Assembly (NCBI RefSeq): GCF_013315695.1
Contig: NZ_CP054353.1
Reading direction: 5' to 3' (one strand)
From: Escherichia coli
Lineage (GTDB): Bacteria > Pseudomonadota > Gammaproteobacteria > Enterobacterales > Enterobacteriaceae
Length of the DNA: 64,000 nt
Below the pieces are notes generated by a model. That model was given only the letters and a program-made list of their open reading frames with translations. It ran no database searches and was not told the origin of the DNA. Shown here in pieces: positions 36,197-54,480 of this stretch; the stretch's first letter is position 1; each line of letters begins with the position of its first letter. The position numbers and the translations under genes are program-made.

Positions 36197-37314
36197 GCAC
36201 AAAATTTTATACCCTGCTGACGGATATTGGCGCGGCGAAACTTGCCAGCGCCGCCGCGCTCGGTGTGCCGCTAAAAATTACCCATATGGCGGTGGGCGAT
36301 GGCGGTGGAGTATTGCCAACGCCGGACGCAAAGCAGACGGCACTGGTAAATGAGAAACGCCGGGCTGCGCTGAATATGCTTTATATCGACCCGCAGAACA
36401 GCAGCCAGATTATTGCCGAACAGGTGATCCCTGAAAACGAGGGCGGTTGGTGGATACGTGAAGTGGGCTTGTTTGATGAGTCCGGGGCATTGATTGCCGT
36501 GGGCAACTGCCCGGAAAGCTATAAGCCGCAACTGGCTGAAGGTAGCGGGCGCACTCAGACCGTGCGCATGGTGCTGATTACCAGCAGCACGGACAATATC
36601 ACCCTGAAAATCGACCCTGCTGTAGTGCTGGCAACCCGCAAGTATGTGGATGACAAGGCACTGGAGCTGAAGGTGTACGCAGATGATCAGATGGCAAAAC
36701 ATCTTGCCGCACCGGACCCGCATTCACAGTACGCGCCAAAAGCCAGCCCGACATTTACCGGAACCCCCAAAGCGCCAACGCCAGCGGCGGGGAATAATAC
36801 CACGCAGGTTGCGACCACTGCGTTTGTACAGGCGGCACTGACGGCCCTTATTAATGGTGCGCCAGCCACGCTGGACACGCTGAAAGAAATAGCCGCAGCC
36901 ATTAACAATGATCCGAATTTCAGTACCACCATTAACAATGCGCTGGCACTAAAAGCGCCACTGTCGAGTCCGGCACTCACCGGAACGCCAACAGCACCTA
37001 CTGCGGCACAGTCGGTCAACAATACACAGATTGCCACTACAGCTTTTGTGAAATCAGCGATTGCAGCAATGGTGGGTTCTGCACCCGCGGCACTGGATAC
37101 ACTGAACGAACTGGCGGCGGCACTGGGGAATGATCCGAACTTTGCCACGACAATGCTTAATGCGCTGGCAGGTAAACAACCGCTGGACAATACGCTGACT
37201 AATTTGAGTGGAAAGGATGTAGCTGGTCTTCTCGCATACCTTGGTTTGGGAGAAGGCGGCAAAACTGGGTGTGCCTGTTCCAGGGGCCTTCAGATACCGG
37301 ACAACAGGCTTTGA
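36193..37314 (+). CDS. Tail fibre protein H, constant N-terminal part; ORF terminates 20 codons past the inversion crossover site
   Basis: Conserved tail-fibre N-terminus (MSTKFYT...LKITHMAVGDGGG); only 373 aa versus ~670 aa for P2 H. Confidence 0.75.
   Translation: MSTKFYTLLTDIGAAKLASAAALGVPLKITHMAVGDGGGVLPTPDAKQTALVNEKRRAALNMLYIDPQNSSQIIAEQVIPENEGGWWIREVGLFDESGALIAVGNCPESYKPQLAEGSGRTQTVRMVLITSSTDNITLKIDPAVVLATRKYVDDKALELKVYADDQMAKHLAAPDPHSQYAPKASPTFTGTPKAPTPAAGNNTTQVATTAFVQAALTALINGAPATLDTLKEIAAAINNDPNFSTTINNALALKAPLSSPALTGTPTAPTAAQSVNNTQIATTAFVKSAIAAMVGSAPAALDTLNELAAALGNDPNFATTMLNALAGKQPLDNTLTNLSGKDVAGLLAYLGLGEGGKTGCACSRGLQIPDNRL
37229..37254. other. Left inversion crossover site (gix/hix-like)
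   Basis: ttctcgcataccttggtttgggagaa; its reverse complement matches 39115-39140 and the hix/gix core AAACCAAGGT. Confidence 0.6.
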
Positions 37315-39114
37315 AATGCAAGTGGTGATGGATGGATGAAATTACCCGGAACTGGAAAATCCTGCAAAATGGTCGTGGTGATTTACGCCGAGTTTATCGA
37401 CGCTGGGATGAGAATTACATTGATTAGGCATCGTGTTTTATTGAGTAAGGCCGGACTGCGGAAAAGCACCGTCATCCTGGTGATGGCGGTGCGACTTCAA
37501 AAGCGCTGGGGGAACTGGCGATGATCTTCAGAAGGCCCAACGTTAACAGGGGGCTTTATGCCGCTGCTTACAGAACGTCATCCAACCAGCGACACGGTAT
37601 CGATGAACGACAGTTGGTGGGCTGTTGGCGGGAGTAATTTTATCCAGGGTGATTTATATTGAACGAATATGTTTATAGCTGCAATGGATAACGCCGTATT
37701 TTCCCGAGGATACCACGATTGCGGGGAATATATAAATCATAGGGATGGGATTGGTGAGACGCGGGAATATATTTCTGCATCAACTCAAAATATTTGCAGT
37801 GGGAGTTTCGGTATTGAACCGCCACAAGGACGCTCCGGTACATCTAAGGCTGGAGATGATTTGCTGTTCTGCGTGGAGAAAATCATGGGAATATGTGTCA
37901 GAAGAACTTATTGAAATTACTGAATCAGAAAACACCGGAAACCAAGATGCCAACGAAATACAGAACAGGCGACTATCCCGAAAATACAGCCGCTATCGGT
38001 CGCCATGAACGATAAATGAACTGGCGCAATATAATTGACAGATACTGGATTATCTGGACGGTGGAACTGGTTGATTCCTCCAGCACAGCGCCAGTCATTG
38101 ATTGATGGCAATGGCCTCCGGCAGTCTGGCCAGATGAAACATCCGGCGCGGGACTGTAAACTGTTGCCGTCACCGAAACAATGTAATCCAGCGCAGCGTT
38201 AAGTTGGTTGACGCTGGTGACGGCAACAGATACCGTCCGGCCGGATGTCATCAGTTGAACTGCCTGAGGCGCAGGCCATTTGCATCAATCTGGTGACTGG
38301 GAGGAATCAACCAGTTCAGTGCGTCCAGATAATCCAGCCACAAATTACCCATTTTCGCCAGTTCCCATTTATCAGACGACGTTAGCGGCTTTACCGGGTG
38401 GTTGTATTTTCATGATATTCGCCTGGCTTGATTTAATTAGTAGCTCTGTCTTTCTGATTCAGTTATAGACGATTTCACTTCGATGGTGGGTGGATGATTT
38501 TTAAATCCACAGAACGGCAAATTCATAACCAGCCTTACGGATTTTGAGCGTTGTGGCAGGTTCTGGAATAAACTCACTGCAAGATATTTTTGATGCAGAA
38601 ATATATTCCCGCGTCTCACCATCATAGTTATAGACGGTCAATATATCCACGCCTTCGTGGTAATGCCTTGCGCTATTTAAACACGGCGTCGTTCATTAAT
38701 GCAGCCCTGACGATAAGTTAAACCAACAGCCCACGGGTTGTAATTCGCCGATACCGATGTCGCTGGTGAATGACGTTCGGTGATGGGATCAGAATTAAAG
38801 CCGGTTAACCCCCTGGGCCTTCGTGCAGTCATCACGAATTGTCGCCCAGCGCCCATTCCTCTTTGAGCCATCACCCAGAATGAGTACAGGATGACGGTGC
38901 TTTTCCAGCATTTTGGGGAAAGGGATGCTAAAAACACGTCCTCATTGTTACCGCGATAATGTCGGCGTAACCGCGAATAACGACCGCATAAATCAGGTAA
39001 TTTATTTGTTGGATAATTGCCAGTTCCATCCATCAAAATGCCGCACCGTTGCAAAAGCCAGCCTGTCCGGTATCTGAAGGCCATGGAACAGTCACACCAT
39101 CCCGTTTTGCAGAG

Positions 39115-39140
39115 CTTCTCCCAAACCAACGTTTATGAAA
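39115..39140. other. Right inversion crossover site (gix/hix-like)
   Basis: ttctcccaaaccaacgtttatgaaaa, inverted relative to 37229-37254. Confidence 0.6.
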
Positions 39141-39196
39141 ATGCAGAGATAATGGCTAACTGGCATCATCCCCGGTTTTTATTCAGGGGGATGATC

Positions 39197-39763
39197 ATGC
39201 TTATTGGCTATGTACGCGTGTCAACAAATGACCAGAACACCGATTTGCAACGTAATGCACTGAACTGCGCGGGATGTGAGCGGATTTTTGAGGATAAAAT
39301 CAGTGGCACTAAGTCCGACAGACCAGGGTTGAAAAAACTGCTCAGGACACTATCGGCAGGAGACACGCTGGTTGTCTGGAAGCTGGACAGGTTGGGGCGC
39401 AGTATGCGGCATCTTGTTACGCTGATAGAAGAGTTGCGTCAGCGAGGCGTGAATTTCCGAAGCCTGACTGACAGTATTGATACCAGCACCCCAATGGGCC
39501 GTTTCTTTTTTCATGTCATGGGTGCCCTGGCTGAAATGGAACGCGAACTGATAGTTGAACGTACCAGGGCAGGGCTGGCTGCAGCTCGTGCCAAAGGCAG
39601 AGTAGGTGGACGCCGTCCTAAGTTGACCACCGAACAGTGGGCACAGATTGGGCGTTTACTCGAGGCCGGAGAATCAAGACAGCGTATTGCACTGATTTTT
39701 GATGTAGGCGTTTCTACCATTTATAGAAAATTTCCGGCAAATAAGAGCAATGAATCTCCCTGA
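39197..39763 (+). CDS. pin: Serine DNA invertase (Pin/Gin/Hin family), 188 aa
   Basis: MLIGYVRVSTNDQNTDLQRNAL...DTLVVWKLDRLGRSM... matches E. coli Pin; aggggg RBS before ATG 39197. Confidence 0.9.
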   Translation: MLIGYVRVSTNDQNTDLQRNALNCAGCERIFEDKISGTKSDRPGLKKLLRTLSAGDTLVVWKLDRLGRSMRHLVTLIEELRQRGVNFRSLTDSIDTSTPMGRFFFHVMGALAEMERELIVERTRAGLAAARAKGRVGGRRPKLTTEQWAQIGRLLEAGESRQRIALIFDVGVSTIYRKFPANKSNESP

Positions 39764-39904: not shown

Positions 39905-41077
39905 ATGGCTCAGGATTACCACCATGGGGTGCGCGTTGTTGAAGTCAACGAAGGCACCCGATCCATTACCACGGTGAGCACCGCCATCGTGGGTATGGTC
40001 TGCACGGGCGACGATGCCGATGCAAAAATGTTTCCTCTTAATAAACCCGTGCTGATCACTGATGTGCTGACTGCCAGCGGTAAAGCGGGTGAGTCCGGCA
40101 CGCTGGCCCGTTCGCTGGACGCCATCGCTGACCAGGCAAAACCCGTGACCGTTGTTGTGCGTGTGCCGCAGGGTGAAACGGAAGAAGAAACCACAACCAA
40201 TATCATCGGCGCAGTGACCGCCGAGGGTAAAAAAACAGGCATGAAAGCCCTGCTATCTGCCCAGTCACAGCTCGGCGTTAAACCGCGCATTCTCGGCGTG
40301 CCAGGTCACGATAACAAAGCCGTTGCTACTGAGTTGCTGAGTGTGGCGCAAAGCCTGCGTGGGTTTGCCTACCTGTCAGCATATGGCTGCAAGACGGTAC
40401 AGGAGGCGATCACTTACCGTGAAAACTTCAGCCAGCGCGAAGGGATGCTGATCTGGCCTGACTTTACTGGCTGGGACACGGTGCTGAACGCCGAAGCAAT
40501 GGCATATGCCACCGCCCGTGCGCTTGGTCTGCGTGCCAAAATTGATGAGCAGACCGGGTGGCACAAAAGCCTGTCCAACGTGGGCGTGAACGGTGTCACC
40601 GGAATTTCTGCAGATGTGTTCTGGGATCTGCAGGACCCGGCAACCGATGCAGGTCTGCTGAACCAGAACGACGTCACCACGCTTGTGCGTAAAGACGGTT
40701 TCCGCTTCTGGGGTTCCCGCTGCCTGAGTGATAACCCGCTCTTTGCCTTCGAAAACTACACCCGCACGGCGCAGGTGCTGATGGACACGATGGCAGAAGC
40801 ACACATGTGGGCGGTGGATAAACCGCTTAACCCGTCGCTGGCCCGCGACATTATCGAAGGTATCCGCGCCAAAATGCGCAACCTGGTCAGTCAGGGCTAT
40901 CTCATTGGTGGTGATTGCTGGCTGGACGAGTCGGTGAACGACAAAGACACGCTTAAAGCCGGAAAACTCACCATCGACTACGACTACACGCCAGTGCCGC
41001 CACTTGAAAATCTGATGCTGCGCCAGCGCATCACCGATCAGTACCTGGTGAATTTCGCCAGCCAGGTCAGCGCGTAA
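39905..41077 (+). CDS. Tail sheath protein FI (390 aa)
   Basis: Size and position as P2 FI. Confidence 0.9.
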
Positions 41078-41086
41078 GGGGACAAC

Positions 41087-41602
41087 ATGGCTTTACCACG
41101 TAAATTAAAACATCTGAACTTGTTTAACGACGGGAACAACTGGCAGGGGATCGTTGAGTCGCTGACGCTGCCGAAATTCACCCGCAAATATGAGAAGTAT
41201 CGCGGCGGCGGTATGCCGGGGGCGGTGGATGTGGATCTGGGACTGGATGACAGTGCACTGGATACAGAATTTTCCATTGGTGGTACTGAACTGCTGCTGT
41301 TTAAGCAGATGGGCAAATCCACGGTGGATGGCATCCAGCTGCGCTTTACCGGCTCTATCCAGCGTGACGATACCGGGGAAGTGCAGGCCGTGGAGCTTGT
41401 CGTGCGTGGACGTCACAAAGAAGTGGATTCCGGCGAGTGGAAGACGGGCGAAAGCAACACCACCAAAGTGACCAGTACCAACAGCTACGCGAAGCTGACC
41501 ATCAATGGTGAGGTGCTCTATGAAGTGGACCTTATCAACATGGTGGAAATTGTGGACGGTGTGGACCTGATGGAAGCGCACCGCAACGCCCTCGGCCTCT
41601 GA
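41087..41602 (+). CDS. Tail tube protein FII (171 aa)
   Basis: Size and position as P2 FII. Confidence 0.9.
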   Translation: MALPRKLKHLNLFNDGNNWQGIVESLTLPKFTRKYEKYRGGGMPGAVDVDLGLDDSALDTEFSIGGTELLLFKQMGKSTVDGIQLRFTGSIQRDDTGEVQAVELVVRGRHKEVDSGEWKTGESNTTKVTSTNSYAKLTINGEVLYEVDLINMVEIVDGVDLMEAHRNALGL

Positions 41603-41656: not shown

Positions 41657-41959
41657 ATGAGCGATAAACAGACTGAAAAGACCATTCAACTGGATACCCC
41701 CATCATGCGCGGTAAAACAGAAATTACCGAAATTGTGTTGCGTAAACCGCAGTCTGGTGCGCTGCGCGGCACACGCCTGCAGGCCATTATGGATATGGAT
41801 GTGAACGCGATGATGACCGTGATCCCCCGCATCTCCAGTCCGGCACTGACTGCACAGGAAATCGCAGAGATGGACCCGGCAGATCTCACAGCCATGTCGG
41901 TTGAGGTTGTCACTTTTTTGTTGAAGAAGTCGGTGCTTGCCGGTTTACCGACAGCCTGA
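41657..41959 (+). CDS. Tail assembly chaperone E (100 aa)
   Basis: Position between tube and tape-measure genes. Confidence 0.8.
   Translation: MSDKQTEKTIQLDTPIMRGKTEITEIVLRKPQSGALRGTRLQAIMDMDVNAMMTVIPRISSPALTAQEIAEMDPADLTAMSVEVVTFLLKKSVLAGLPTA
41914..41920 (+). other. Programmed -1 ribosomal frameshift site producing E+E' (extension to 42093)
   Basis: Slippery heptamer TTTTTTG inside E; the -1 frame stays open to 42093, overlapping the tape-measure start. Confidence 0.6.
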
Positions 41960-42085
41960 CGGTTGACGATCTGGTGGCAGATATCGCCACCATTTTTCAC
42001 TGGCCGCCATCCGTTACTGACGTTATGCCGCTGACCGAAGTGCTGGAATGGCGGTATAAAGCGATTCAGAGAAGCAGGGCCAACG

Positions 42086-45000
42086 ATGAGTGATAACAAC
42101 CTGCGCCTGCAGGTCATTCTTAATGCGGTTGACAAACTCACCCGCCCATTCCGTGCTGCACAGGCCAGTTCGAAAGAGCTGGCTGGCGCAATCAGAAACT
42201 CCCGTGACGCATTAAAGCAACTCAATCAGGCGGGTAACAGCCTGGAAAAATTTCGCAAGCTGCAGGCTGATAACAAGAAGTTAGGTGACAGGCTGAACTA
42301 TGCCAGACAGAAGGCTAATTTGCTTAGCTCTGAGCTGGAGGCGATGGAACAACCATCACAACGGCACCTTGTGGCTTTAGGTCGGCAAACGCTGGCAGTC
42401 CAACGCCTGGAAGAACAACAAAAATATTTGCAGAAGCAAACGGCGCTTGTGCGTGCAGAACTGTACCGGGCGGGAATTTCTGCGAAAGATGATGCGGGAG
42501 CAACTGCCCGTTTAGCCCGTGAAACATCACGTTATAACCAGGAATTGTCGAAACAGGAGGCGCGGCTGAAGCGACTGGGTGAAGCTCAGCGCAGGATGAA
42601 TGCGGCGCGTGCCAGTTATGCCCGTTCGCTGGAGGTGCGTGATCGTATTGCAGGAGCCGGAGCCACCACCACGGCTGCAGGGCTGGCAATGGGAACACCA
42701 GTGATGGCGGCAGTAAAAAGCTATACCAGCATGGAAGATGCCATGAAAGGTGTGGCAAAGCAGGTCAATGGTCTGCGTGACGATAATGGCAACCGCACTG
42801 CACGTTTTTATGAAATGCAGGATGCCATCAAGGCTGCCAGCGAACAGTTGCCGATGGAAAACGGTGCGGTGGACTTCGCTGCACTGGTTGAAGGTGGTGC
42901 GCGCATGAACGTCGCAAACCCTGACGACAGCTGGGAAGACCAGAAACGTGACCTGCTGGCCTTCGCCAGTACGGCAGCAAAGGCGGCAACAGCCTTTGAG
43001 CTGCCAGCGGATGAACTGTCAGAAAGTCTGGGGAAAATCGCCCAGCTCTACAAAATACCTACCCGCAATATTGAACAGCTCGGCGATGCGCTGAACTATC
43101 TGGATGATAACGCCATGTCGAAAGGGGCGGACATCATTGATGTCATGCAACGTCTGGGCGGTGTGGCTGATCGTCTGGATTATCGTAAAGCGGCGGCGCT
43201 GGGTTCCACCTTTCTGACACTGGGCGCTGCGCCAGAGGTTGCAGCCAGTGCAGCAAACGCGATGGTGCGTGAATTGTCCATTGCCACCATGCAAAGCAAG
43301 AGTTTCTTTGAAGGGATGAATCTGCTGAAACTCAATCCTGAAGTGATTGAAAAGCAGATGACGAAGGATGCGATGGGAACTATCCAGCGTGTGCTGGAGA
43401 AGGTGAACGCACTGCCGCAGGACAAGCGTCTGTCTGCCATGACCATGTTGTTTGGTAAAGAGTTTGGTGATGACGCGGCGAAACTGGCAAACAACCTTCC
43501 GGAACTGCAGCGCCAGCTAAAACTGACTGCGGGCAATGATGCGCTCGGTTCCATGCAGAAAGAATCCGACATCAACAAAGACTCACTTTCTGCGCAGTGG
43601 TTGCTGGTCAAAACCGGAGCGCAGAACACCTTCAGCAGCCTGGGCGAAACGCTGCGCCAGCCGCTGATGGATATTCTGTACACGGTAAAAAGCATCACGG
43701 GGGCGTTGCGCCGCTGGGTGGAAGCTAACCCGGAACTGACAGGCACACTGATGAAAGTAGCGGCTGTTGTGGCTGCGGTTACCGTAGGCCTCGGCACCTT
43801 AGCGGTGGCGCTGGCTGCAGTGCTGGGGCCGCTGGCAGTCATCCGTTTGGGATTCTCTGTGCTGGGTATCAAAACGTTACCTTCCGTTACGGCAGCAGTA
43901 ACACGAACCAGCAGCGCGTTGTCCTGGCTGGCTGGCGCTCCACTGGCACTGCTGCGACGCGGGCTTGCTTCATCGGGCAACGCAGCGGGTTTACTTACTG
44001 CGCCGTTGTCGTCTTTGCGCCGCATGGCATCACTGACGGGGAATGTCCTGAAAACTGTAGCAGGTGTGCCGGTTGCACTGTTGCGGTCTGGATTATCCGG
44101 TTTACGTGCTGTTGCTGTGATGTTTATGAATCCACTGGCAGCACTACGCGGTGGACTGGCTGCCGCAGGCGCGGTGCTGCGAGTACTGGCATCCGGTCCG
44201 CTGGCGATGCTGCGCGTTGCCCTGTATGCCGTATCTGGTCTGTTAGGTGCTCTGCTCAGTCCGATAGGTCTTGTGGTTACTGCACTGGCGGGCGTGGCGC
44301 TGGTTGTCTGGAAATACTGGCAACCCATCACCGCATTTCTCGCTGGTGTGGTGGAAGGATTCAACGCGGCGGCAGGTCCCATCAGTGCAGCATTCGAACC
44401 GCTTAAGCCTGTGTTTCAGTGGATTGGCGATAAAGTGCAGGCGTTGTGGGGCTGGTTTACTGATCTGCTGACGCCCGTTAAGTCGACCTCTGCCGAACTG
44501 CAGAGTGCAGCGGCAATGGGGCGGCGATTCGGAGAGGCACTGGCGGAAGGGCTGAATATGGTCATGCATCCGCTGGACTCCCTGAAATCCGGCGTTTCCT
44601 GGTTGCTGGAGAAACTTGGCATTGTCAGTAAAGAGGCCGCAAAGGCAAAACTGCCGGAAAGCATGACGCGTCAGCAACCTGCGACGGTGAATGCAGACGG
44701 TAAAGTGATGATGCCATCGGGTGGTTTTCCGTCATGGGGATATGGCTTTGCGGGGATGTATGACAGCGGCGGGTATATCCCGCGCGGGCAGTTTGGCATC
44801 GTCGGTGAAAACGGGCCGGAAATTGTTAACGGCCCGGCAAATGTGACCAGCCGGAGAAATACAGCTGCACTGGCTGCCGTTGTTGCCGGAATGATGGGCG
44901 TTGCTGCCGCGCCAGCAGAGCTTCCACCGTTGCACCCTTTGGCACTTCCCGCGAAAGGTGGAGAAGCAATTGTGAGTCGCGCAGCCACTGTGCCGCTCGT

Positions 45001-45163
45001 TCAACGGATTGAGGCACCGACGCAGATCATCATTCAGACGCAGCCAGGACAAAGTGCGCAGGATATTGCGCGGGAGGTGGCACGCCAGCTTGATGAACGT
45101 GAACGCAGGCTGAAGGCAAAAGCCAGGAGTAACTACAGCGATCAGGGGGGATACGACGCATGA
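42086..45163 (+). CDS. Tail tape measure protein T (1025 aa)
   Basis: Long Ala/Leu-rich protein at the T position. Confidence 0.9.
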   Translation: MSDNNLRLQVILNAVDKLTRPFRAAQASSKELAGAIRNSRDALKQLNQAGNSLEKFRKLQADNKKLGDRLNYARQKANLLSSELEAMEQPSQRHLVALGRQTLAVQRLEEQQKYLQKQTALVRAELYRAGISAKDDAGATARLARETSRYNQELSKQEARLKRLGEAQRRMNAARASYARSLEVRDRIAGAGATTTAAGLAMGTPVMAAVKSYTSMEDAMKGVAKQVNGLRDDNGNRTARFYEMQDAIKAASEQLPMENGAVDFAALVEGGARMNVANPDDSWEDQKRDLLAFASTAAKAATAFELPADELSESLGKIAQLYKIPTRNIEQLGDALNYLDDNAMSKGADIIDVMQRLGGVADRLDYRKAAALGSTFLTLGAAPEVAASAANAMVRELSIATMQSKSFFEGMNLLKLNPEVIEKQMTKDAMGTIQRVLEKVNALPQDKRLSAMTMLFGKEFGDDAAKLANNLPELQRQLKLTAGNDALGSMQKESDINKDSLSAQWLLVKTGAQNTFSSLGETLRQPLMDILYTVKSITGALRRWVEANPELTGTLMKVAAVVAAVTVGLGTLAVALAAVLGPLAVIRLGFSVLGIKTLPSVTAAVTRTSSALSWLAGAPLALLRRGLASSGNAAGLLTAPLSSLRRMASLTGNVLKTVAGVPVALLRSGLSGLRAVAVMFMNPLAALRGGLAAAGAVLRVLASGPLAMLRVALYAVSGLLGALLSPIGLVVTALAGVALVVWKYWQPITAFLAGVVEGFNAAAGPISAAFEPLKPVFQWIGDKVQALWGWFTDLLTPVKSTSAELQSAAAMGRRFGEALAEGLNMVMHPLDSLKSGVSWLLEKLGIVSKEAAKAKLPESMTRQQPATVNADGKVMMPSGGFPSWGYGFAGMYDSGGYIPRGQFGIVGENGPEIVNGPANVTSRRNTAALAAVVAGMMGVAAAPAELPPLHPLALPAKGGEAIVSRAATVPLVQRIEAPTQIIIQTQPGQSAQDIAREVARQLDERERRLKAKARSNYSDQGGYDA

Positions 45164-45645
45164 TGATGGTGCTGGGATTGTACGTGTTTATGCTGCGCAC
45201 CGTTCCGTATCAGGAACTGCAGTATCAACGCAGCTGGCGACATGCGGCAAACAGTCGGGTAAACCGACGTCCGTCCACGCAGTTTCTGGGACCGGAAAAC
45301 GACATGCTGACGCTTTCCGGTGTTCTTATGCCGGAGATAACAGGCGGCAGGCTGTCGTTGCTGGCACTGGAGCAGATGGCAGAACAGGGGAAAGCATGGC
45401 CCCTGATTGAAGGCAGCGGCACGATTTACGGCATGTATGTGATTGAGGGACTGAATCAGACTAAAACGGAGTTTTTCCGCGACGGTATGCCGCGCCGGAT
45501 TGAGTTCACCCTGTCGCTCAAACGAGTGGATGAATCCCTGTCCGATATGTTCGGTGATCTCAGTGCGCAACTGAATAATCTGCAGGACACGGCAACGTCT
45601 GCCTTAAGCGATATCAGTAAAACGGTGGGAGGGCTGCTGTCGTGA
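45160..45645 (+). CDS. Tail protein U (161 aa)
   Basis: Size and position as P2 U. Confidence 0.85.
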   Translation: MMMVLGLYVFMLRTVPYQELQYQRSWRHAANSRVNRRPSTQFLGPENDMLTLSGVLMPEITGGRLSLLALEQMAEQGKAWPLIEGSGTIYGMYVIEGLNQTKTEFFRDGMPRRIEFTLSLKRVDESLSDMFGDLSAQLNNLQDTATSALSDISKTVGGLLS

Positions 45646-46742
45646 ATTTCAGCGCTGAACTGCTTAACACAGGCAACAAAACTCCCGCATTCAGCATCAG
45701 TATTGAGGGCAGGGATATCACCACTGTGCTGGATAACCGCCTGATGAGTTTGACGCTGACGGATAACCGGGGCTTTGAAGCGGACCAGCTTGATCTGGAG
45801 CTGGATGACGCTGACGGAAAAATCGTGCTGCCGCGCCGTGGTGCGGTCATTACGCTGGCGCTGGGCTGGAAGGGGCAGCCGCTTTTCCCTAAAGGGGCAT
45901 TCACAGTGGACGAGATTGAACACACTGGCGCACCGGACCGCCTGACTATCCGGGCGCGAAGTGCTGATTTTCGGGAAACGCTGAATACCCGCCGTGAAAA
46001 ATCGTGGCATAAGACCACCGTCGGGGAAGTGGTGAAGGAAATAGCCGCGCGGCACAAGCTGAAGATGGCACTGGGTAAAGACCTGTCGGATAAGCCCGTG
46101 GAGCATATAGACCAGACTAATGAGAGTGACGGCAGTTTTCTGATGCGGCTGGCGCGACAGTACGGTGCCATCGCGTCGGTGAAAAATGGCAATCTGTTAT
46201 TCATCCGGCAGGGGCAGTGCAAAAGCGCCACTGGTAAACCTCTGCCAGTGATCACTATCACACGCAAGGACGGTGACAGTCACCGATTTATCCTGGCAGA
46301 TCGCGGAGCCTACACGGGCGTAATTGCCAGCTGGTTGCATACCCGCGAACCTGCGAAGAAAGAAAGCACCACGGTGAAGCGTAAGCGCAGAACTAAGAAG
46401 CAGAAGAAAGAGCCAGAAGCGAAGCAGGGCGATTACCTGGTGGGTACGGATGAAAACGTGCTGGTACTTAATCGCACTTATGCCAACCGGAGCAACGCCG
46501 AACGAGCGGCGAAAATGCAGTGGGAACGCCTGCAACGCGGCGTTGCGTCATTTTCTCTACAACTGGCAGAAGGGCGGGCAGATCTCTACACGGAAATGCC
46601 TGTGAAGGTCAGTGGTTTTAAACAGCCGATAGATGATGCGGAATGGACCATTACGACTCTGACACATACCGTCAGCCCGGATAACGGTTTTACAACCAGT
46701 ATTGAACTTGAAGTGAAAATTAATGATCTTGAAATGGAATAA
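45642..46742 (+). CDS. Tail protein D (366 aa)
   Basis: Size and position as P2 D. Confidence 0.85.
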   Translation: MNFSAELLNTGNKTPAFSISIEGRDITTVLDNRLMSLTLTDNRGFEADQLDLELDDADGKIVLPRRGAVITLALGWKGQPLFPKGAFTVDEIEHTGAPDRLTIRARSADFRETLNTRREKSWHKTTVGEVVKEIAARHKLKMALGKDLSDKPVEHIDQTNESDGSFLMRLARQYGAIASVKNGNLLFIRQGQCKSATGKPLPVITITRKDGDSHRFILADRGAYTGVIASWLHTREPAKKESTTVKRKRRTKKQKKEPEAKQGDYLVGTDENVLVLNRTYANRSNAERAAKMQWERLQRGVASFSLQLAEGRADLYTEMPVKVSGFKQPIDDAEWTITTLTHTVSPDNGFTTSIELEVKINDLEME

Positions 46743-46810
46743 ATGGTTCTCAATATTGATATTTTGTGTATCATTGCATTGATTATGATAGCAAAGGTAG
46801 GGATCTGGAT

Positions 46811-47029
46811 ATGATGAATTGTCCAAAGTGTGGTCATGCGGCGCACACAAGGAGCAGTTTTCAAGTAACGGAAAGCACCAAAGAACGTTACTGCCAGTGC
46901 CAAAATATTAACTGCGGGAGCACTTTTGTTACCCATGAAACAGTGGTCCGGTTTATTGTGACACCTGCAGTGATTGCCACAGCCCCTCCACATCCATTGC
47001 CAGATGGTCAGGGCCATATGAATTTTTAA
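46811..47029 (+). CDS. ogr: Ogr late-gene transcriptional activator (zinc finger, 72 aa)
   Basis: MMNCPKCGHAAHTRSS...CQCQNINC... matches P2 Ogr. Confidence 0.85.
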   Translation: MMNCPKCGHAAHTRSSFQVTESTKERYCQCQNINCGSTFVTHETVVRFIVTPAVIATAPPHPLPDGQGHMNF

Positions 47030-47269: not shown

Positions 47270-48346
47270 TTAATAGAATGTTTCTACTAAAGCGTTTACA
47301 TGTTCTCTAGCCTCGCGATAACGCTCTCTTACAACGTTGATAATTTCACCGTTTGGCATTTCATAATGAGTTTGAGCAGGAAGTTTGAAAAGAGGAATTC
47401 CCAAACTTGCAGAAACTTTCCCTGAAGTATGAAAATCTTTAACTTCAGAAAGATAGGCCGCCTCCCATTCATTTAAGTTATTGATTTCACGATATCGCTC
47501 CGTGAATAGTTCTGGGAAGTTCTGATATTGTGTAAAAGCAAAAGCACAAAGGGATTCTTTGATTGAATCATAAGCTCTGGCAACACCAAGATTAGACGTA
47601 AAGTTATTGAAAACAAAGCGATCTAACTTAGGTAATGTAAGATTATTATTCACAACTTGGCTATGAAAAGTGACAAACTTTTCTGCATAGGTTTGTGCAG
47701 CAGAAGAGGGATAATGGCCATAAAGAAGCATCATTATTCCTTTCATCCCTTCTAATGAACTGTAATCAGCCATCATAGGGACGACCAGTCTATCTGAAGA
47801 TAGTAGAGCCATTTGGGTGTAGATAGAAAAACTTGGATTACAGTCAATAAAGACAACCATATCATCGTAATCATCAATATCATGTTCTAGAGTACATAGT
47901 CGACGAAATGCTGTCATATACTCTTTCCATGCGAACCTGTTAGCTGGACTGATAACTGCATAGTTCAGTGCAAGAGTAAGGGACTCGAGGAATGAATCAC
48001 CGGCGATGAGAAACAAATTATCGCTGATTTCATCATTATATTGGTTTACTGCTACTTTGAAAGAACGTCGAATACTGGTGAAATTTGAATGGCCATCTAA
48101 AAGCCAGTCCAGAAACCCTACGACATTTTTGCGTGTTCGTGAAGATTGTAGCTCTTGATTAGTATTGTACCCACGATCACCTCCTCCAAGCAGGTATTGA
48201 GAAATGTTTGCTTGCGGACACAAATCTATTACTAGTACCTGTGTGCTGGGATTTTCTTCTGCATACTGTGCAGCAATGTTGAAACCAAGTGTTGTTTTTC
48301 CAACACCGCCTTTGTTGTTATACATTGCATAAATCTTAACTGCCAT
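47270..48346 (-). CDS. ParA/MinD-like P-loop ATPase with ~150-aa C-terminal extension (358 aa), cargo gene between ogr and attR
   Basis: Deviant Walker A NKGGVGKTT, A' motif VLVIDLCPQANIS, Walker B VVFIDCNPS; AT-rich. Confidence 0.7.
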   Translation of the reverse strand: MAVKIYAMYNNKGGVGKTTLGFNIAAQYAEENPSTQVLVIDLCPQANISQYLLGGGDRGYNTNQELQSSRTRKNVVGFLDWLLDGHSNFTSIRRSFKVAVNQYNDEISDNLFLIAGDSFLESLTLALNYAVISPANRFAWKEYMTAFRRLCTLEHDIDDYDDMVVFIDCNPSFSIYTQMALLSSDRLVVPMMADYSSLEGMKGIMMLLYGHYPSSAAQTYAEKFVTFHSQVVNNNLTLPKLDRFVFNNFTSNLGVARAYDSIKESLCAFAFTQYQNFPELFTERYREINNLNEWEAAYLSEVKDFHTSGKVSASLGIPLFKLPAQTHYEMPNGEIINVVRERYREAREHVNALVETFY

Positions 48347-48641: not shown

Positions 48642-48686
48642 TGGTGGAGCTGGCGGGAGTTGAACCCGCGTCCGAAATTCCTACAT
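48642..48686. repeat. attR core: 3' end of ssrA, identical to 13430-13474
   Basis: 45-bp exact direct repeat. Confidence 0.9.
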
Positions 48687-49004
48687 CCTCGGTACTACAT
48701 GCTTAGTCAGTCTTTACATTCGCTTGCCAGCTGCGGACGGACACGCCACTAACAAACTAGCCTGATTAAGTTTTAACGCTTCAACCCCAGGCAGGGCTTC
48801 CACGCGATCTCTTTTGGGTTTGACCTCTCTTGATCCCCGTCCTAAGAGCGGAGGCTAGGGAGAGAGGGCTCTAAGCAGGTTATTAAGCTGCTAAAGCGTA
48901 GTTTTCGTCGTTTGCGACTATTTTTTGCGGCTTTTTACGAGGCCAACCGCCCCTCGGCATGCACCTTGGGTTTCGCAAATCCCGTCGAATCCAGAATCAG
49001 CCCC
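48642..49004 (-). ncRNA. ssrA: tmRNA (SsrA RNA), 363 nt
   Basis: Reverse complement begins GGGGCTGATTCTGGATTCGACGGG and ends GGGTTCAACTCCCGCCAGCTCCACCA; tag ORF region (GCAAACGACGAAAACTACGCTTTAGCAGCTTAA) present. Confidence 0.97.
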
Positions 49005-49218
49005 AATGTGTAACGGTAAGTATACCAGATTCATGAGTGCCATGACCAGCCTCAATGGCGTTATCGTTAAAGATTTAGCACCCATGTAGCCTGATTTTTA
49101 TTCGATTAAGCAATGGGATGGCAACATTTGTGTCGGATGTGATAGCCAATAAGATGTGCATTCGCGCCGCCGGAGAGGGAGGCGCGGTGAGGAACTGGTC
49201 AATAATTGCAGTGCAGGT

Positions 49219-49701
49219 TTAACGGTGGGCGTTTTTCATGATACGCGCTTTATCCACCTGCCATTCGCGTTCTTTGATATCTGAACGTTTATCATGCTGT
49301 TTCTTACCTTTGGCGACGCCGATTTTCACTTTGCACCAGGCATTTTTCCAGTACAGGGAGAGCGCCACTACGGTATAGCCTTCTCGATTGACGCGACCGT
49401 ACAATGAGTCCAGTTCGCGCTGGTTGAGAAGTAACTTGCGGGTACGGGTAGGATCGCACACCACATGCGTGGAGGCCACGGCCATTGGCGTGATGTTAGC
49501 GCCAAACAGAAATGCCTCTCCGTCACGCAGAAGGACGTAGCTGTCGCTGATATTGGCTTTTCCTGCGCGCAGGGATTTAACTTCCCAGCCTTGCAGGGCA
49601 AGTCCCGCTTCGAACTCTTCTTCGATAAAGTATTCGTGACGGGCGCGCTTGTTAAGCGCGATGGTCGCTGAACCAGGTTTATGTGCTTTTTTCTTCGTCA
49701 T
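49219..49701 (-). CDS. smpB: SsrA-binding protein SmpB (160 aa)
   Basis: Sequence-level match to E. coli SmpB; adjacent to ssrA. Confidence 0.97.
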
Positions 49702-49832
49702 AAGCGTCGTGAATCATCGGTAATCTGAAATCGAAAACACCCCATATCAATCCTGCGGGGGACAAGGCTCTATCTTAGCATGAACCCGATGTTACCCAGC
49801 GCCGGGATAGCGTTTTTTTTACAGCAGGATAA

Positions 49833-50309
49833 ATGATATTATTTGTTGGATTTTTGTTGATGGAAATTGTTATGCCTCAGATTAGCCGGACCGCACTGGT
49901 ACCCTACAGCGCGGAGCAAATGTATCAGTTAGTGAATGACGTTCAGTCTTATCCTCAGTTTTTGCCGGGTTGTACCGGAAGTCGGATTCTGGAGTCCACT
50001 CCTGGGCAGATGACTGCGGCGGTAGATGTCTCTAAGGCTGGGATCAGCAAAACGTTTACTACCCGCAACCAGTTGACCAGTAACCAAAGTATTCTTATGA
50101 ATCTGGTGGATGGGCCGTTCAAGAAATTGATCGGTGGATGGAAGTTTACGCCGCTGAGCCAGGAGGCGTGTCGTATCGAGTTTCATCTCGACTTTGAGTT
50201 TACCAATAAGTTGATTGAACTCGCCTTTGGTCGCGTGTTTAAAGAGCTGGCGGCTAATATGGTCCAGGCTTTTACGGTTCGTGCGAAAGAGGTTTACAGT
50301 GCCAGGTAA
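49833..50309 (+). CDS. ratA: Ribosome association toxin RatA (SRPBCC family)
   Basis: Matches E. coli RatA/YfjG; alternative start at 49872. Confidence 0.9.
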
Positions 50310-50589
50310 AATTGCCGTTGAGGTGGCTTATGCGCTACCTGAGAAGCAGTACCTGCAGCGCGTGACGCTGCAGGAGGGTGCGACGGTTGAAGAAGCTATT
50401 CGTGCCAGTGGCTTGCTGGAATTGCGTACCGATATCGATTTAACTAAAAACAAAGTCGGCATTTACAGCCGTCCGGCCAAACTGAGCGATACCGTGCATG
50501 ATGGCGATCGGGTGGAGATTTATCGTCCTCTCATTGCCGATCCGAAAGAGCTGCGCAGGCAACGAGCAGAAAAATCAGCGAATAAATAA
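50299..50589 (+). CDS. ratB: RatB/YfjF (UPF0125), GTG start
   Basis: [21 protein letters not shown]... matches E. coli YfjF; overlaps the ratA stop. Confidence 0.85.
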
Positions 50590-50602
50590 CAGACAGAAAA
50601 AA

Positions 50603-50625
50603 GGTGCTCATTGAGCACCTTTTTT
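50603..50625. terminator. Bidirectional rho-independent terminator between ratB and bamE
   Basis: ggtgctcattgagcacc hairpin flanked by an A-run and a T-run. Confidence 0.55.
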
Positions 50626-50650
50626 AACCTCTTTGAGAGCAACTTTATTA

Positions 50651-50992
50651 TTAGTTACCACTCAGCGCAGGTTTGTTATCAATGTTGGTCAACACACCGC
50701 TACTGTTAAAGGTCAGCGTCAGCGTTTGCTGCGTTACACCTTCATGACCAGGTTGCTGGCGGAAGACATAGAACCAGGTATTTGTACCAAATGGATCGGA
50801 CATCAGCGGTGTACCCAATGCGTACGCAACTTGTTGTTGCGTCATGCCAACACGTATTTTGGATACGTCGTTAGCGGTCAGATAATTCCCCTGGTTGATG
50901 TCAGGACGGTAAACCACTCGCTCCAGAGTGGAACAGCCTGCGGTCAACATCAATAGTACTGCTGCTGCAGCAGTCAGCGTTTTACAGCGCAT
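50651..50992 (-). CDS. bamE: Outer membrane protein assembly factor BamE (113 aa)
   Basis: Lipoprotein signal (LMLTAGCS) and match to E. coli BamE/SmpA. Confidence 0.9.
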
Positions 50993-51140
50993 AGTGATTT
51001 GATTCCTTTTCGGGCCCGAGCAGTACGTGGCTCATCTGTAATATGCCGATGATAATAGACCTTTCATCACTTTAAAACCTTTTGCTTTCCGGTCCTACGG
51101 CGTTTTGCTGTTTACTCTGACCGTGAAGCAGGAAAAAAGT

Positions 51141-52802
51141 TTACGCCGCAAGCAGTTCTTTCGCATTCGCCAGTGTGTTACGTGTGACTTCACTGCCACC
51201 AAGCAGGCGTGCCAGCTCTTGTAACCGCGCTTTTTTATCCAGGGATTGCATGTGCGTTTCTGTCATCGCACCATCGGTTTCTTTGCTGACAAAATAGTGT
51301 TGATGACCACATCCCGCGACTTGTGGCAGGTGGGTAACACACATCACCTGAGTTGATTCGCCAAGTTGACGCAGCAGTTTGCCGACAACTGCCGCTGTTG
51401 GGCCGCTAATCCCTACATCCACTTCATCAAAAATCAGTGCCGGGGTTTCCATTTTACGCGCCGTGATGACCTGAATTGCCAATGCGATGCGGGACAACTC
51501 ACCACCGGATGCGACTTTGGCAATAGGCTGCATTGGCTGACCTGGGTTGGTGGTTACCCGAAACTCAATACGATCAGCGCCGTCAGCGCCCAGGTGATGC
51601 TCGTCAAATTTAACATCGATCGTAAACTGCCCATGCGGCATAGAGAGTGCATGCATACTGTCGGTGATCAGCTGTGCAAGTTCTTCTGCATAGTGCTGGC
51701 GTTGCTGGTGTAACGCGCGCGCCGTTTCCAGTGCCTGCTGATGATGTTTCGTTACCGCCAGCGCGAGCGTTTCTTGTGAGTCGGCCTGATCGTCCAGTTG
51801 CTGCTGTTCTTCCAGTAGCGACTGGTAATACTGTGGCAATGCCTCAGGGCTGACGTGATGTTTACGTGCCAGCGAAATCTGTCTTGAGATGCGCTGTTCA
51901 AGTTCAAACAGTCGGTTGGGATCGAGATCCAGACGATCGCAGTAGTGGCGCAGTTCATCGCTGGCTTCAGCAATCTGGATGGTAGCTTCTTCCAGCATAT
52001 CAAGTACGCCGGACAGTTTGCTGTCCATGCCAATCAATTCGCTCACCAGTTGTTTAGCCGTGTAAAGCTGACTTTGCAGGTTTGCGTCTTCACCGTCGGC
52101 CATTACTGCCAATGCATTCTGGCTGGTAGTCAGCAATTGACCGCTGTTCGCCAGACGTTTGTACTCTTCGTCGATTTGCTCAAACTCTCCGGGCTGCGGA
52201 TTAAATTCGTTAAGTTCTTTTAATTGGTATTGCAGCAGTTCTGCACGGGCGGCGCGTTCCTGACTTAACTGTTGATGATGCGCGAGGTCACGGCAGCTTT
52301 GATGCCACAACTGATAACGTGCGGTCATTTCCTGGAGTAGAGAGGTTTCATTGGCATAGCCATCAAGCAGGAATTTTTGGTGCTCGGGTTTGGTGAGTAA
52401 CTGATGAGCGTGCTGACCATGGATCTGAATCAGCAACTGACCCAGTTCGCGCAGTTGTGAAAGAGGAACCGCTGTACCGTTGATAAAACCACGGGAGCGA
52501 CCATCGCTGCTGATTACGCGACGAAGCAAACATTCATGCCCGTCTTCAAGCTGGTTTTCTTCCAGCCAGCGCAGGGCCGCTGGCGTATCTTTCAGAGAAA
52601 AACGGGCGCACAGGTCAGCGCGAGCAGCGCCGGTACGCACCATGTCGGCTTCAGCGCGACCACCGAGACAAAGACCGAGGGCATCTATTGCAATAGATTT
52701 ACCCGCGCCGGTCTCGCCAGTTATTACGGTCATGCCGCTATGAAAATCAATCTCAAGCTCACGAACGATAGCAAAGTTGCTGATGGTCAGTTGTGCCAAC
52801 AT
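51141..52802 (-). CDS. recN: DNA repair protein RecN (553 aa)
   Basis: SMC-like ATPase with Walker A GETGAGKS; matches E. coli RecN. Confidence 0.95.
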
Positions 52803-52810
52803 AGTTGTTT

Positions 52811-52870
52811 TCCTGTATGAAAAACCATTACTGTTATTGTGTACAGTATAAACTGGTTTTATATACAGTA
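52811..52870 (-). promoter_or_regulatory. recN promoter region with LexA boxes
   Basis: rc reads tactgtatataaaaccagtt, tactgtacacaataacagta, taatggtttttcatacagga, all CTGT-N8-ACAG-like. Confidence 0.7.
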
Positions 52871-52887
52871 AAGAGGCTGGCGTAAAA

Positions 52888-54480
<1,593 letters not shown>

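Follow-up and report, generated by a model that had tools for sequence, protein, structure and literature searches.

A predicted programmed −1 ribosomal frameshift of the P2 E/E+E′ type in the tail operon of a Fels-2-like Escherichia coli prophage

Introduction

A short −1 frame overlaps the end of gene E in the tail operon of an Escherichia coli prophage. Is it translated as the C-terminal extension of gene E through a programmed frameshift, or does the E′ product arise in another way? The locus was analysed within a window of 64,000 nucleotides of contig NZ_CP054353.1 (assembly GCF_013315695.1), in which the Fels-2-like prophage is integrated in the chromosome adjoining ssrA. Very probably, the locus encodes a programmed −1 ribosomal frameshift of the P2 E/E+E′ type, as predicted from the observed layout of the sequence and from the two frames, each of which has homologues and is conserved and under purifying selection. 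That the shift would occur on the ribosome, its likely efficiency and the presumed roles of the chaperones are drawn by analogy from P2 and lambda. An E/E′ frameshift of this kind is already known, ordinary and conserved, and involves no new biology.

The tail operon and the overlapping frames of gene E

All features described here are located on the plus strand, and the genes follow the order sheath, tube, E/E′, T, U, D, ogr. The FI-FII-E-T-U-D operon begins with the tail sheath gene FI (39905–41077; Pfam Phage_sheath_1, Phage_sheath_1C and Gp18_domIII_N). The tail tube gene FII (41087–41602; PF04985 Phage_tube, E=1e-59) lies directly 5′ of E, so that the chaperone gene is placed between the tube gene and the tape-measure gene T. 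The ORF of T (42086–45163) encodes 1025 aa and matched PF10145 PhageMin_Tail with E=2e-18; its product is named 'phage tail tape measure protein' in RefSeq relatives. Gene U (45160–45645; Phage_P2_GpU, E=3e-44) and gene D (45642–46742; Phage_GPD, E=2e-26) complete the operon. All seven tail-operon ORFs were full length, and the lengths of FI, FII, E, E′, T, U and D equalled those of a RefSeq E. coli prophage with 97.7% identity, which agrees with the proposal of the first-pass annotation that the tail assembly module is intact. The intact frameshift site and the full-length genes FI, FII, T, U and D would fit a prophage still able to build tails.

Gene E (41657–41959) starts with ATG at 41657 and stops at 41957–41959, giving a zero-frame product of 100 aa. 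It was identified as a tail assembly chaperone from its ORF and from matches to Pfam PF10109 Phage_TAC_7 (E=2.4e-18, 66 bits at a 25-bit cut-off) and to PHROG 103 'tail protein' (E=4e-42). In tblastn, P2 E+E′ showed about 47% identity to gene E and the fusion. The TTTTTTG that the first-pass annotation had placed within gene E was found at 41914–41920, with coordinates exact to the base. Base 41914 is the third base of ACT (codon 86), followed by TTT (87) and TTG (88), which gives the canonical slippery heptamer T_TTT_TTG in the X_XXY_YYZ phase of E, the same site as in P2. The bare TTTTTTG occurred 32 times on both strands of the window, compared with 21.5 expected copies. Since the bare heptamer is this common, its count alone is no argument, and the case for the site rests on phase, position and homology. 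Only seven in-phase XXXYYYZ heptamers were present in the 7.1-kb operon, and the site in E was the sole one of U6 type. An open −1 frame of at least 59 codons was found at only 10% of in-phase positions in the operon.

In the −1 frame, a TGA at 41902–41904 is followed by an open stretch that starts at 41905 and runs to the TGA at 42091–42093. It comprises 62 codons, 44 of them past the stop of E. Its end overlaps the T start (ATG 42086) by 8 nt (ATGAGTGA), as the first-pass annotation had described for a frame open to 42093. The E′ extension proper (41920–42093; 57 codons and TGA) was supported by this open frame, by protein family matches and by third-position bias. Residues 1–88 of E joined to the extension give a predicted E+E′ fusion of 145 aa. 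Its residues 107–142 matched Pfam PF06528 Phage_P2_GpE (E=3.4e-17, 62 bits at a 23-bit cut-off), and PHROG 1756 aligned to residues 85–145. No NCBIfam model matched the fusion, and a PDB sequence search with it gave no relative at E≤1. Altogether, the combination of heptamer, phase, open −1 frame and homology excludes chance.

Most ribosomes translating E would stop normally and release the 100-aa chaperone gpE. A minority would slip back by one base as tRNA-Phe (on UUU) and tRNA-Leu (on UUG) re-pair with U_UUU_UUG, and would then read the −1 frame to the TGA at 42091–42093. The resulting 145-aa fusion would have the E′ domain as its C-terminal part. As proposed by analogy for gpE/gpE+E′ of P2 and gpG/gpGT of lambda, both gpE and the fusion would bind the product of the gene directly 3′, the tape-measure protein T. 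Recruitment of the tube protein FII is ascribed to the rare E′ domain, after which the tube and then the sheath would polymerise to the right length. The fixed frequency of slipping would set the ratio of the two chaperones. In P2, the fusion reportedly amounts to about 10%, and E′ is said to be essential for tail assembly.

Conservation and selection among related phages

Searches with the fusion in tblastn matched 421 phage records, of which 387 covered at least 80% of its length; among the matches listed, the fusion aligned in two pieces. A diverse set of 15 relatives, comprising phages of Enterobacteria, Burkholderia, Pseudomonas and Acidovorax, was compared at the equivalent place. In-phase TTTTTTG inside the −1-open zone was present in 11 of these, and three carried the other slippery heptamers T_TTT_TTC, G_GGA_AAG and A_AAT_TTT. 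All 55 distinct close relatives had an intact heptamer, two intact frames and an intact start of T, with TTTTTTG in 54 and TTTTTTA in one. The seventh base was G, rarely A or C, across relatives, and the codon phase of the run was likewise kept. The first-pass annotation had named a −1 frame that is not conserved in relatives as evidence against a frameshift; the −1 frame and the slippery site were retained in close as well as distant relatives.

Substitutions among close relatives followed the reading frame expected on either side of the site. Before the site, 44 of 62 were at third positions of the E frame (p=2e-9), and after the stop of E, 16 of 29 were at third positions of the −1 frame (p=0.013). 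Variable sites were depleted in the dual-coding overlap of E and E′ (41914–41959): their density among 57 close relatives was 0.065, compared with 0.24 and 0.23 in the flanks that code in a single frame (Fisher p=0.007). Substitutions were 3.6-fold rarer in the overlap. Both frames are under purifying selection among relatives.

Alternative origins of the E′ product

A first alternative is that E′ is an independent small gene whose translation starts at GTG 41974, without frameshift, and gives a 39-aa 'GpE family phage tail protein'. Such an annotation comes from PGAP and is found in many GenBank records, RefSeq and GenBank relatives carry exactly that separate CDS, and ATG or GTG occupied the equivalent codon in nine of 13 relatives. 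In the remaining four (VP58.5, Mannheimia 587AP1, Alfacinha1 and 3LV2017), however, this codon was TGG, ATT or ATC, and the −1 frame contained no ATG, GTG or TTG between the slippery site and the E′ core. GTG 41974 is the only start-like codon for E′ in the prophage. Its pairing to the anti-SD (−2.5 kcal/mol) was the weakest in the operon, compared with −4.0 to −11.0 kcal/mol for the six real starts, and E′ has no translation initiation signal of its own. The −1 peptide was moreover kept from the heptamer on (FFVEEVG, FFVAELG, FFGAEGG), 5′ of any start, and the PHROG 1756 alignment spans the E–E′ junction. Experiments in P2 also gave a fusion: according to PMC3091744 and PMC3931495, which summarise Christie et al. 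2002 (J Bacteriol 184:6522), a 91-aa E and a 142-aa E+E′ share a single start, the latter arising through a −1 shift at TTTTTTG, and E′ has no ribosome binding site. Independent initiation at GTG 41974 was rejected based on the weakest SD pairing and the four relatives without start codon, and is very improbable as the source of E′.

In a second alternative, RNA polymerase would stutter on the T6 run and add one U, so that a minority mRNA would encode E+E′. Transcriptional slippage is a known alternative route to such products in bacteria and phages (PMC5009743). As a homopolymer of six T, the site could in principle support some slippage. For appreciable slippage, however, E. coli RNA polymerase usually needs a run longer than six residues, which counts against this route. 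The codon phase of the run and its seventh base are conserved, which matters for the re-pairing of tRNAs and not for stuttering. The homologous sites G_GGA_AAG and A_AAT_TTT cannot stutter and fit tandem tRNA slippage instead. Transcriptional slippage thus has hardly any likelihood as the origin of the fusion. A negligible probability was assigned to the idea that the signal is intact but never used in a defective prophage, a silent relic suggested by its chromosomal position beside ssrA, because the tail-operon ORFs are full length with lengths matching the RefSeq prophage, isolated Klebsiella phages and an E. coli phage-plasmid match the left-hand prophage DNA over 80% of its length at about 96% identity, both frames are under purifying selection among relatives, and the objection concerns the expression state and not the identity of the element.

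Candidate stimulatory elements

For the programmed ribosomal frameshift, two candidate stimulators were considered. An SD-like GAGGT is located at 41903–41907, 7 nt 5′ of the heptamer, with a predicted anti-SD duplex of −6.3 kcal/mol. It is a weak motif, although its pairing was in the top 8% of operon positions. Similar motifs were present in P2 (AAGGTGG), Fels-2, PsP3 and Alfacinha1, and anti-SD pairing was enriched 5′ of the site relative to the background of each locus (Fisher p=3e-4), in 11 lineages that are not independent. At the motif, minor G-ending Glu and Lys codons were used 5′ of the heptamer. The motif also overlaps a conserved (E/K)-V-V peptide. ENT90 had AAA at this place, and the motif was not found in P88 and 3LV2017. 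The third-position invariance 5′ of the heptamer vanished when Fels-2 and SEN8 were included. Given the homology of the lineages, the overlap with conserved residues, the exceptions ENT90, P88 and 3LV2017 and the lost invariance, an upstream SD-like stimulator was not established, and the motif is no more than a lead. The conserved (E/K)-V-V peptide and common descent could explain the enrichment of anti-SD pairing and the G-ending codons equally well.

Downstream, a weak candidate hairpin of 6 bp, GTCGGT and ACCGAC with a 12-nt loop, is located at 41929–41952, 8 nt 3′ of the heptamer. One compensatory change, GTCGGC/GCCGAC, was found in the ST15-OXA48phi14.1 lineage. Folding 3′ of the heptamer was unremarkable in the window, with z=−1.0 for 48 nt and −2.05 for 90 nt. 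When the 48 nt after the heptamer were folded in 12 relatives as well, z values were mostly from +0.4 to −2.7 overall and no structure was shared. P2 and the other lineages had no counterpart of the hairpin. With no fold common to the window and the 12 relatives, a downstream stimulatory structure was rejected as a family feature, and the local hairpin was retained as a weak lead. PMC3091744 likewise reports no downstream stimulatory structure for P2 and Burkholderia relatives, so the lack of a clear stimulator weighs little against the frameshift.

The E/E′ frameshift of the P2 family is generally assumed to be stimulator-free. A rather doubtful suggestion is that it may use an internal SD-like element (GAGGT here, AAGGTGG in P2), as E. 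coli dnaX does, to which the hairpin of the Fels-2 lineage may add. Tandem −1 slippage on a homopolymer-type heptamer is common to both systems, the dnaX site being A_AAA_AAG with an upstream SD-like element and a downstream hairpin. GAGGT on the 5′ side and the small candidate hairpin 8 nt 3′ of the heptamer recall this arrangement. The spacing of the SD-like element is about 10 nt in dnaX, compared with 7 nt for GAGGT. In contrast to dnaX, both candidate stimulators are weak here, the downstream fold is insignificant and the biological purpose is unrelated.

Comparison with P2, Fels-2 and lambda

In the P2 record NC_001895, an identical T_TTT_TTG of the same phase is where 'E+E′, −1 frameshift, essential tail protein' is annotated. 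P2, in its FETUD operon, and the prophage also share the order FI-FII-E/E′-T-U-D-ogr, 62 open −1 codons, the 8-nt overlap with the T start, and homologous E (Phage_TAC_7) and E′ (Phage_P2_GpE) at the identity of about 47% over the fusion. The P2-like arrangement suggested by the first-pass annotation was thus recovered in full. Compared with P2, E is longer (100 aa against 91), as are the fusion (145 aa against 142) and the tape measure (1025 aa against 815, from the T coordinates), the heptamer lies 45 nt before the stop of E instead of 27 nt, and T overlaps U in the prophage. Integrated at ssrA, the prophage is Felsduovirus-like and falls in the Fels-2 lineage, not in Peduovirus. These differences leave the mechanism untouched. 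The fusion was demonstrated experimentally in P2 only, whereas it is predicted from sequence here.

Closer counterparts are the Salmonella phages Fels-2, SEN8 and RE2010 and Fels-2-like prophages of E. coli and Klebsiella (Peduoviridae), with 86–98% DNA identity over E–E′. Heptamer, spacing and lengths were identical in this group, and the differences were point substitutions only.

The heptamer of lambda gpG/gpGT is G_GGA_AAG. As in lambda (Levin et al. 1993; Xu, Hendrix & Duda 2004, 2013, 2014), the chaperone gene is flanked by the genes for the major tail tube protein and the tape measure, whereas the lambda tail is non-contractile. Pfam scans of E and the fusion matched only Phage_TAC_7 and Phage_P2_GpE and gave no lambda-family match. 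The likeness to lambda, also proposed at first pass, accordingly holds as an analogy of mechanism and arrangement without sequence homology, and not as family membership.

Annotation of the locus

Annotation pipelines call E′ as the separate 39-aa protein from the internal GTG and not as the 145-aa fusion. A joined CDS with −1 ribosomal slippage at 41920 is proposed instead, and the relevance of the present analysis is mainly to annotation. The Fels-2 record already carries the note 'forms functional gpE+E′ if translational slippage occurs'. The record of Ralstonia phage RSY1 annotates one long ORF in the E′ frame, a misfit to the simple comparison script. At position 42076, the prophage carries A, for Arg in E′; the base is G, for Gly, in 52 of 55 close variants.

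Prophage and tail operon

The feature is the E/E+E' frameshift of P2-type phages, which is well documented and widely conserved. The tail operon comprises, on the + strand, FI (39905-41077, Pfam tail sheath), FII (41087-41602, tail tube), E (41657-41959, Phage_TAC_7, 'tail assembly chaperone proteins E, 41 or 14', E=2e-18), T (42086-45163, tape measure), U (45160-45645, gpU) and D (45642-46742, gpD). It is followed by ogr (46766-47029, Ogr/Delta), and the order FI-FII-E-T-U-D-ogr is that of P2. Among 5426 complete E. coli genomes, 1330 carry a similar tail module.

Integrated at ssrA in E. coli, the element is a Fels-2-like prophage of the P2 family: it adjoins the tmRNA gene ssrA (48642-49004, - strand), and the flank past ssrA matches E. 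coli chromosomes, e.g. MS 21-1, with 100% identity. Beyond ssrA (49000-53000), smpB, ratA, yfjF, bamE and recN were found. A related prophage of E. coli O177:H21 shares the integration site. The prophage may be dead, which would leave the identity of the element unchanged, but all of its tail genes equal in length those of a 97.7% identical RefSeq prophage, and the remainder aligns with isolated phages over 80% of its length at approximately 96% identity. The first-pass annotation had taken the frameshift site as support for an intact tail module. This was upheld, with the site as one indication next to the gene lengths.

Two further regions of the prophage were recorded. A tail-fibre region immediately upstream of the sheath gene (37229-39763) is invertible, with a 27-nt inverted repeat pair (37229-37255 / 39115-39141) resembling Gin/Cin/Hin crossover sites and nested perfect pairs of 32, 20 and 19 nt. 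A serine recombinase/invertase ORF (approximately 39197-39763) lies beside the repeats, with NCBIfam matches to XisF and Mpi-type invertases. The equivalent place in a RefSeq relative holds a 'recombinase family protein' and tail-fibre and assembly genes in opposite orientations. A 358-aa ORF (47270-48346, - strand), flanked by ogr and the ssrA attachment site, has a ParA-like/KGGVGR-motif ATPase N-terminus and matched PHROG 164 at E=7e-40; every NCBIfam match was far under its cut-off. The position looks like one for variable cargo, since in the 97.7% identical E. coli prophage it is taken up by another, hypothetical gene of 160 aa.

Slippery site and comparison with P2

ORF E has 100 codons, from ATG 41657 to TGA 41957-41959 (+ strand). 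It contains TTTTTT at 41914-41919, followed by G at 41920. As 41914 is a third codon position counted from the ATG, the heptamer is read as ACT_TTT_TTG, the X_XXY_YYZ phase required for tandem -1 slippage. Past a TGA at 41902-41904, 62 codons of the -1 frame stay open before the TGA at 42091-42093. With the ATG of T at 42086, the end of E' and the start of T share 8 nt, ATGAGTGA. Heptamer, -1 frame and T overlap had been described exactly in the first-pass annotation. The bare heptamer is common in the window (32 copies observed, 21.5 expected), so its presence alone is no proof. The 7.1-kb tail operon holds just seven in-phase XXXYYYZ heptamers, one of them of the U6 type (41914-41920), and at least 59 open -1 codons follow approximately 10% of its in-phase positions.

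A conceptual fusion of 145 aa was built by joining E residues 1-88 to the -1 frame. Residues 107-142 matched Phage_P2_GpE (PF06528, E=3e-17) and PHROG 1756 spanned the junction, aligning to residues 85-145. In the P2 reference record, the frameshift site is marked and a joined CDS is given as 'E+E', shares amino terminus with gpE; -1 frameshift; essential tail protein'. The P2 heptamer, GGT_TTT_TTG, has the same phase, and the P2 -1 frame also has 62 codons and ends 8 nt inside T. Homology of E and E', identity of the P2 site and conservation support the proposed frameshift as the right interpretation. Christie et al. (2002) reportedly found approximately 10% frameshift efficiency in P2, and E' is said to have been shown essential there by complementation.

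Another in-phase heptamer, G_GGG_GGA at 45145-45151, lies six codons ahead of the T stop. A slip there into the -1 frame, which leads directly to gene U (ATG 45160), would yield a T-U fusion. Most simply, this G-run is the Shine-Dalgarno (SD) sequence of U, ending 8 nt ahead of the ATG; as T and U of P2 do not overlap, there is no hint of function for the heptamer.

Candidate stimulatory elements

A 6-bp hairpin (41929-41934 with 41947-41952) begins 8 nt past the heptamer, and the ST15-OXA48phi14.1 lineage carries one compensatory change in it. Downstream folding energy was unremarkable (z=-1.0 for 48 nt, z=-2.05 for 90 nt), and folding of P2 and other lineages gave no comparable structure. 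Later summaries (PMC3091744, PMC3931495) of the primary work of Christie et al. 2002 state that no downstream RNA structure was seen in P2. Upstream, GAGGT (41903-41907) lies 7 nt ahead of the heptamer, with like motifs in P2, PsP3, Fels-2 and Alfacinha1. Anti-SD pairing was enriched here against each locus's own background (Fisher p=3e-4, 11 lineages), and the Glu/Lys codon within the motif is the minor G-ending one. GAGGT is a candidate stimulator and a lead rather than a finding: it coincides with a conserved (E/K)-V-V peptide, it is missing from several relatives, and the lineages compared have a common ancestry.

Conservation and selection on both frames

With the predicted fusion as tblastn query, 421 phage records were matched, 387 of them over at least 80% of its length; among the matches listed, the fusion match was split in two pieces. 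Hosts included Klebsiella, Escherichia, Salmonella, Yersinia, Burkholderia, Ralstonia, Pseudomonas, Vibrio and Aeromonas. An in-phase TTTTTTG within the -1-open zone was found in 11 of 15 relatives read in detail, a count that leaves Ralstonia phage RSY1 unscored owing to its annotation. Other heptamers at the site were T_TTT_TTC (Vibrio VP58.5), G_GGA_AAG (Mannheimia phage) and A_AAT_TTT (P88). Transcriptional slippage on the T6 run as the cause of the frame change is argued against by the mixed heptamers among them (G_GGA_AAG, A_AAT_TTT), which are unable to stutter, and by the conserved phase and seventh base.

RSY1 (AB981169.1, 452-922) has one annotated 156-aa ORF with the E' sequence at its end, seemingly a -1 frame that stays open over a long stretch of this GC-rich genome. 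E and E' were nonetheless matched as two tblastn pieces, and the single ORF probably reflects the annotation and not a natural fusion of the E and E' genes.

The best 80 of 496 IMG/VR relatives (98-100% protein identity) gave 55 distinct E-E' DNA versions. Both frames and the T start were intact in all 55, and TTTTTTG was kept in 54. Loss of the -1 frame in relatives, together with absence of a fusion product, had been named as grounds for refutation; the tblastn matches, the relatives read in detail and the close set show the frame to be conserved. The remaining version, UViG_2778261510_000014, has T_TTT_TTA through a change equivalent to 41920, synonymous (Leu) in E and still slippery. At 42076, a first codon position of the -1 frame near the E' C-terminus, the window has A (Arg, ...QRSRANDE) and 52 of the 55 have G (Gly, ...RSGA...).

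Across 57 close sequences, 44 of 62 variable sites upstream of the heptamer were E-frame third positions (p=2e-9), and past the E stop 16 of 29 were -1-frame third positions (p=0.013). Within the dual-coding stretch 41914-41959, variable sites numbered 0.065 per base, down from approximately 0.24 (p=0.007). Translation of both frames with a changeover at the heptamer would be expected to leave just this third-position switch and this depletion in the overlap.

Initiation and annotation of E'

RefSeq and many GenBank records annotate a stand-alone 39-aa E' protein that starts at GTG 41974. Independent initiation was rejected, since anti-SD pairing there is the weakest among the operon starts (-2.5 vs -4.0 to -11.0 kcal/mol), the equivalent codon in 4 of 13 relatives is TGG, ATT or ATC and the stretch from the slippery site to the E' core lacks any start codon in these four, and the -1 peptide is conserved from the heptamer on even in such relatives. 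In the P2 summaries (PMC3091744, PMC3931495), E' is given as lacking a ribosome binding site, and a 91-aa E and a 142-aa E+E' are made from a single start by a -1 shift at TTTTTTG.

The practical value of the frameshift lies in annotation, where a joined 145-aa CDS would take the place of the separate 39-aa ORF. Current annotation of E' is inconsistent, both in the window (41974-42093) and in relatives L002, L003, L006, L009 and L011. PGAP and many submitters give a free 'GpE family phage tail protein' of 38-45 aa with differing starts, and the PF06528 match is confined to the part of the fusion called as this separate ORF. A joined frameshifted CDS is given only in P2 and PsP3, and in Fels-2 the slippage appears in a note only.
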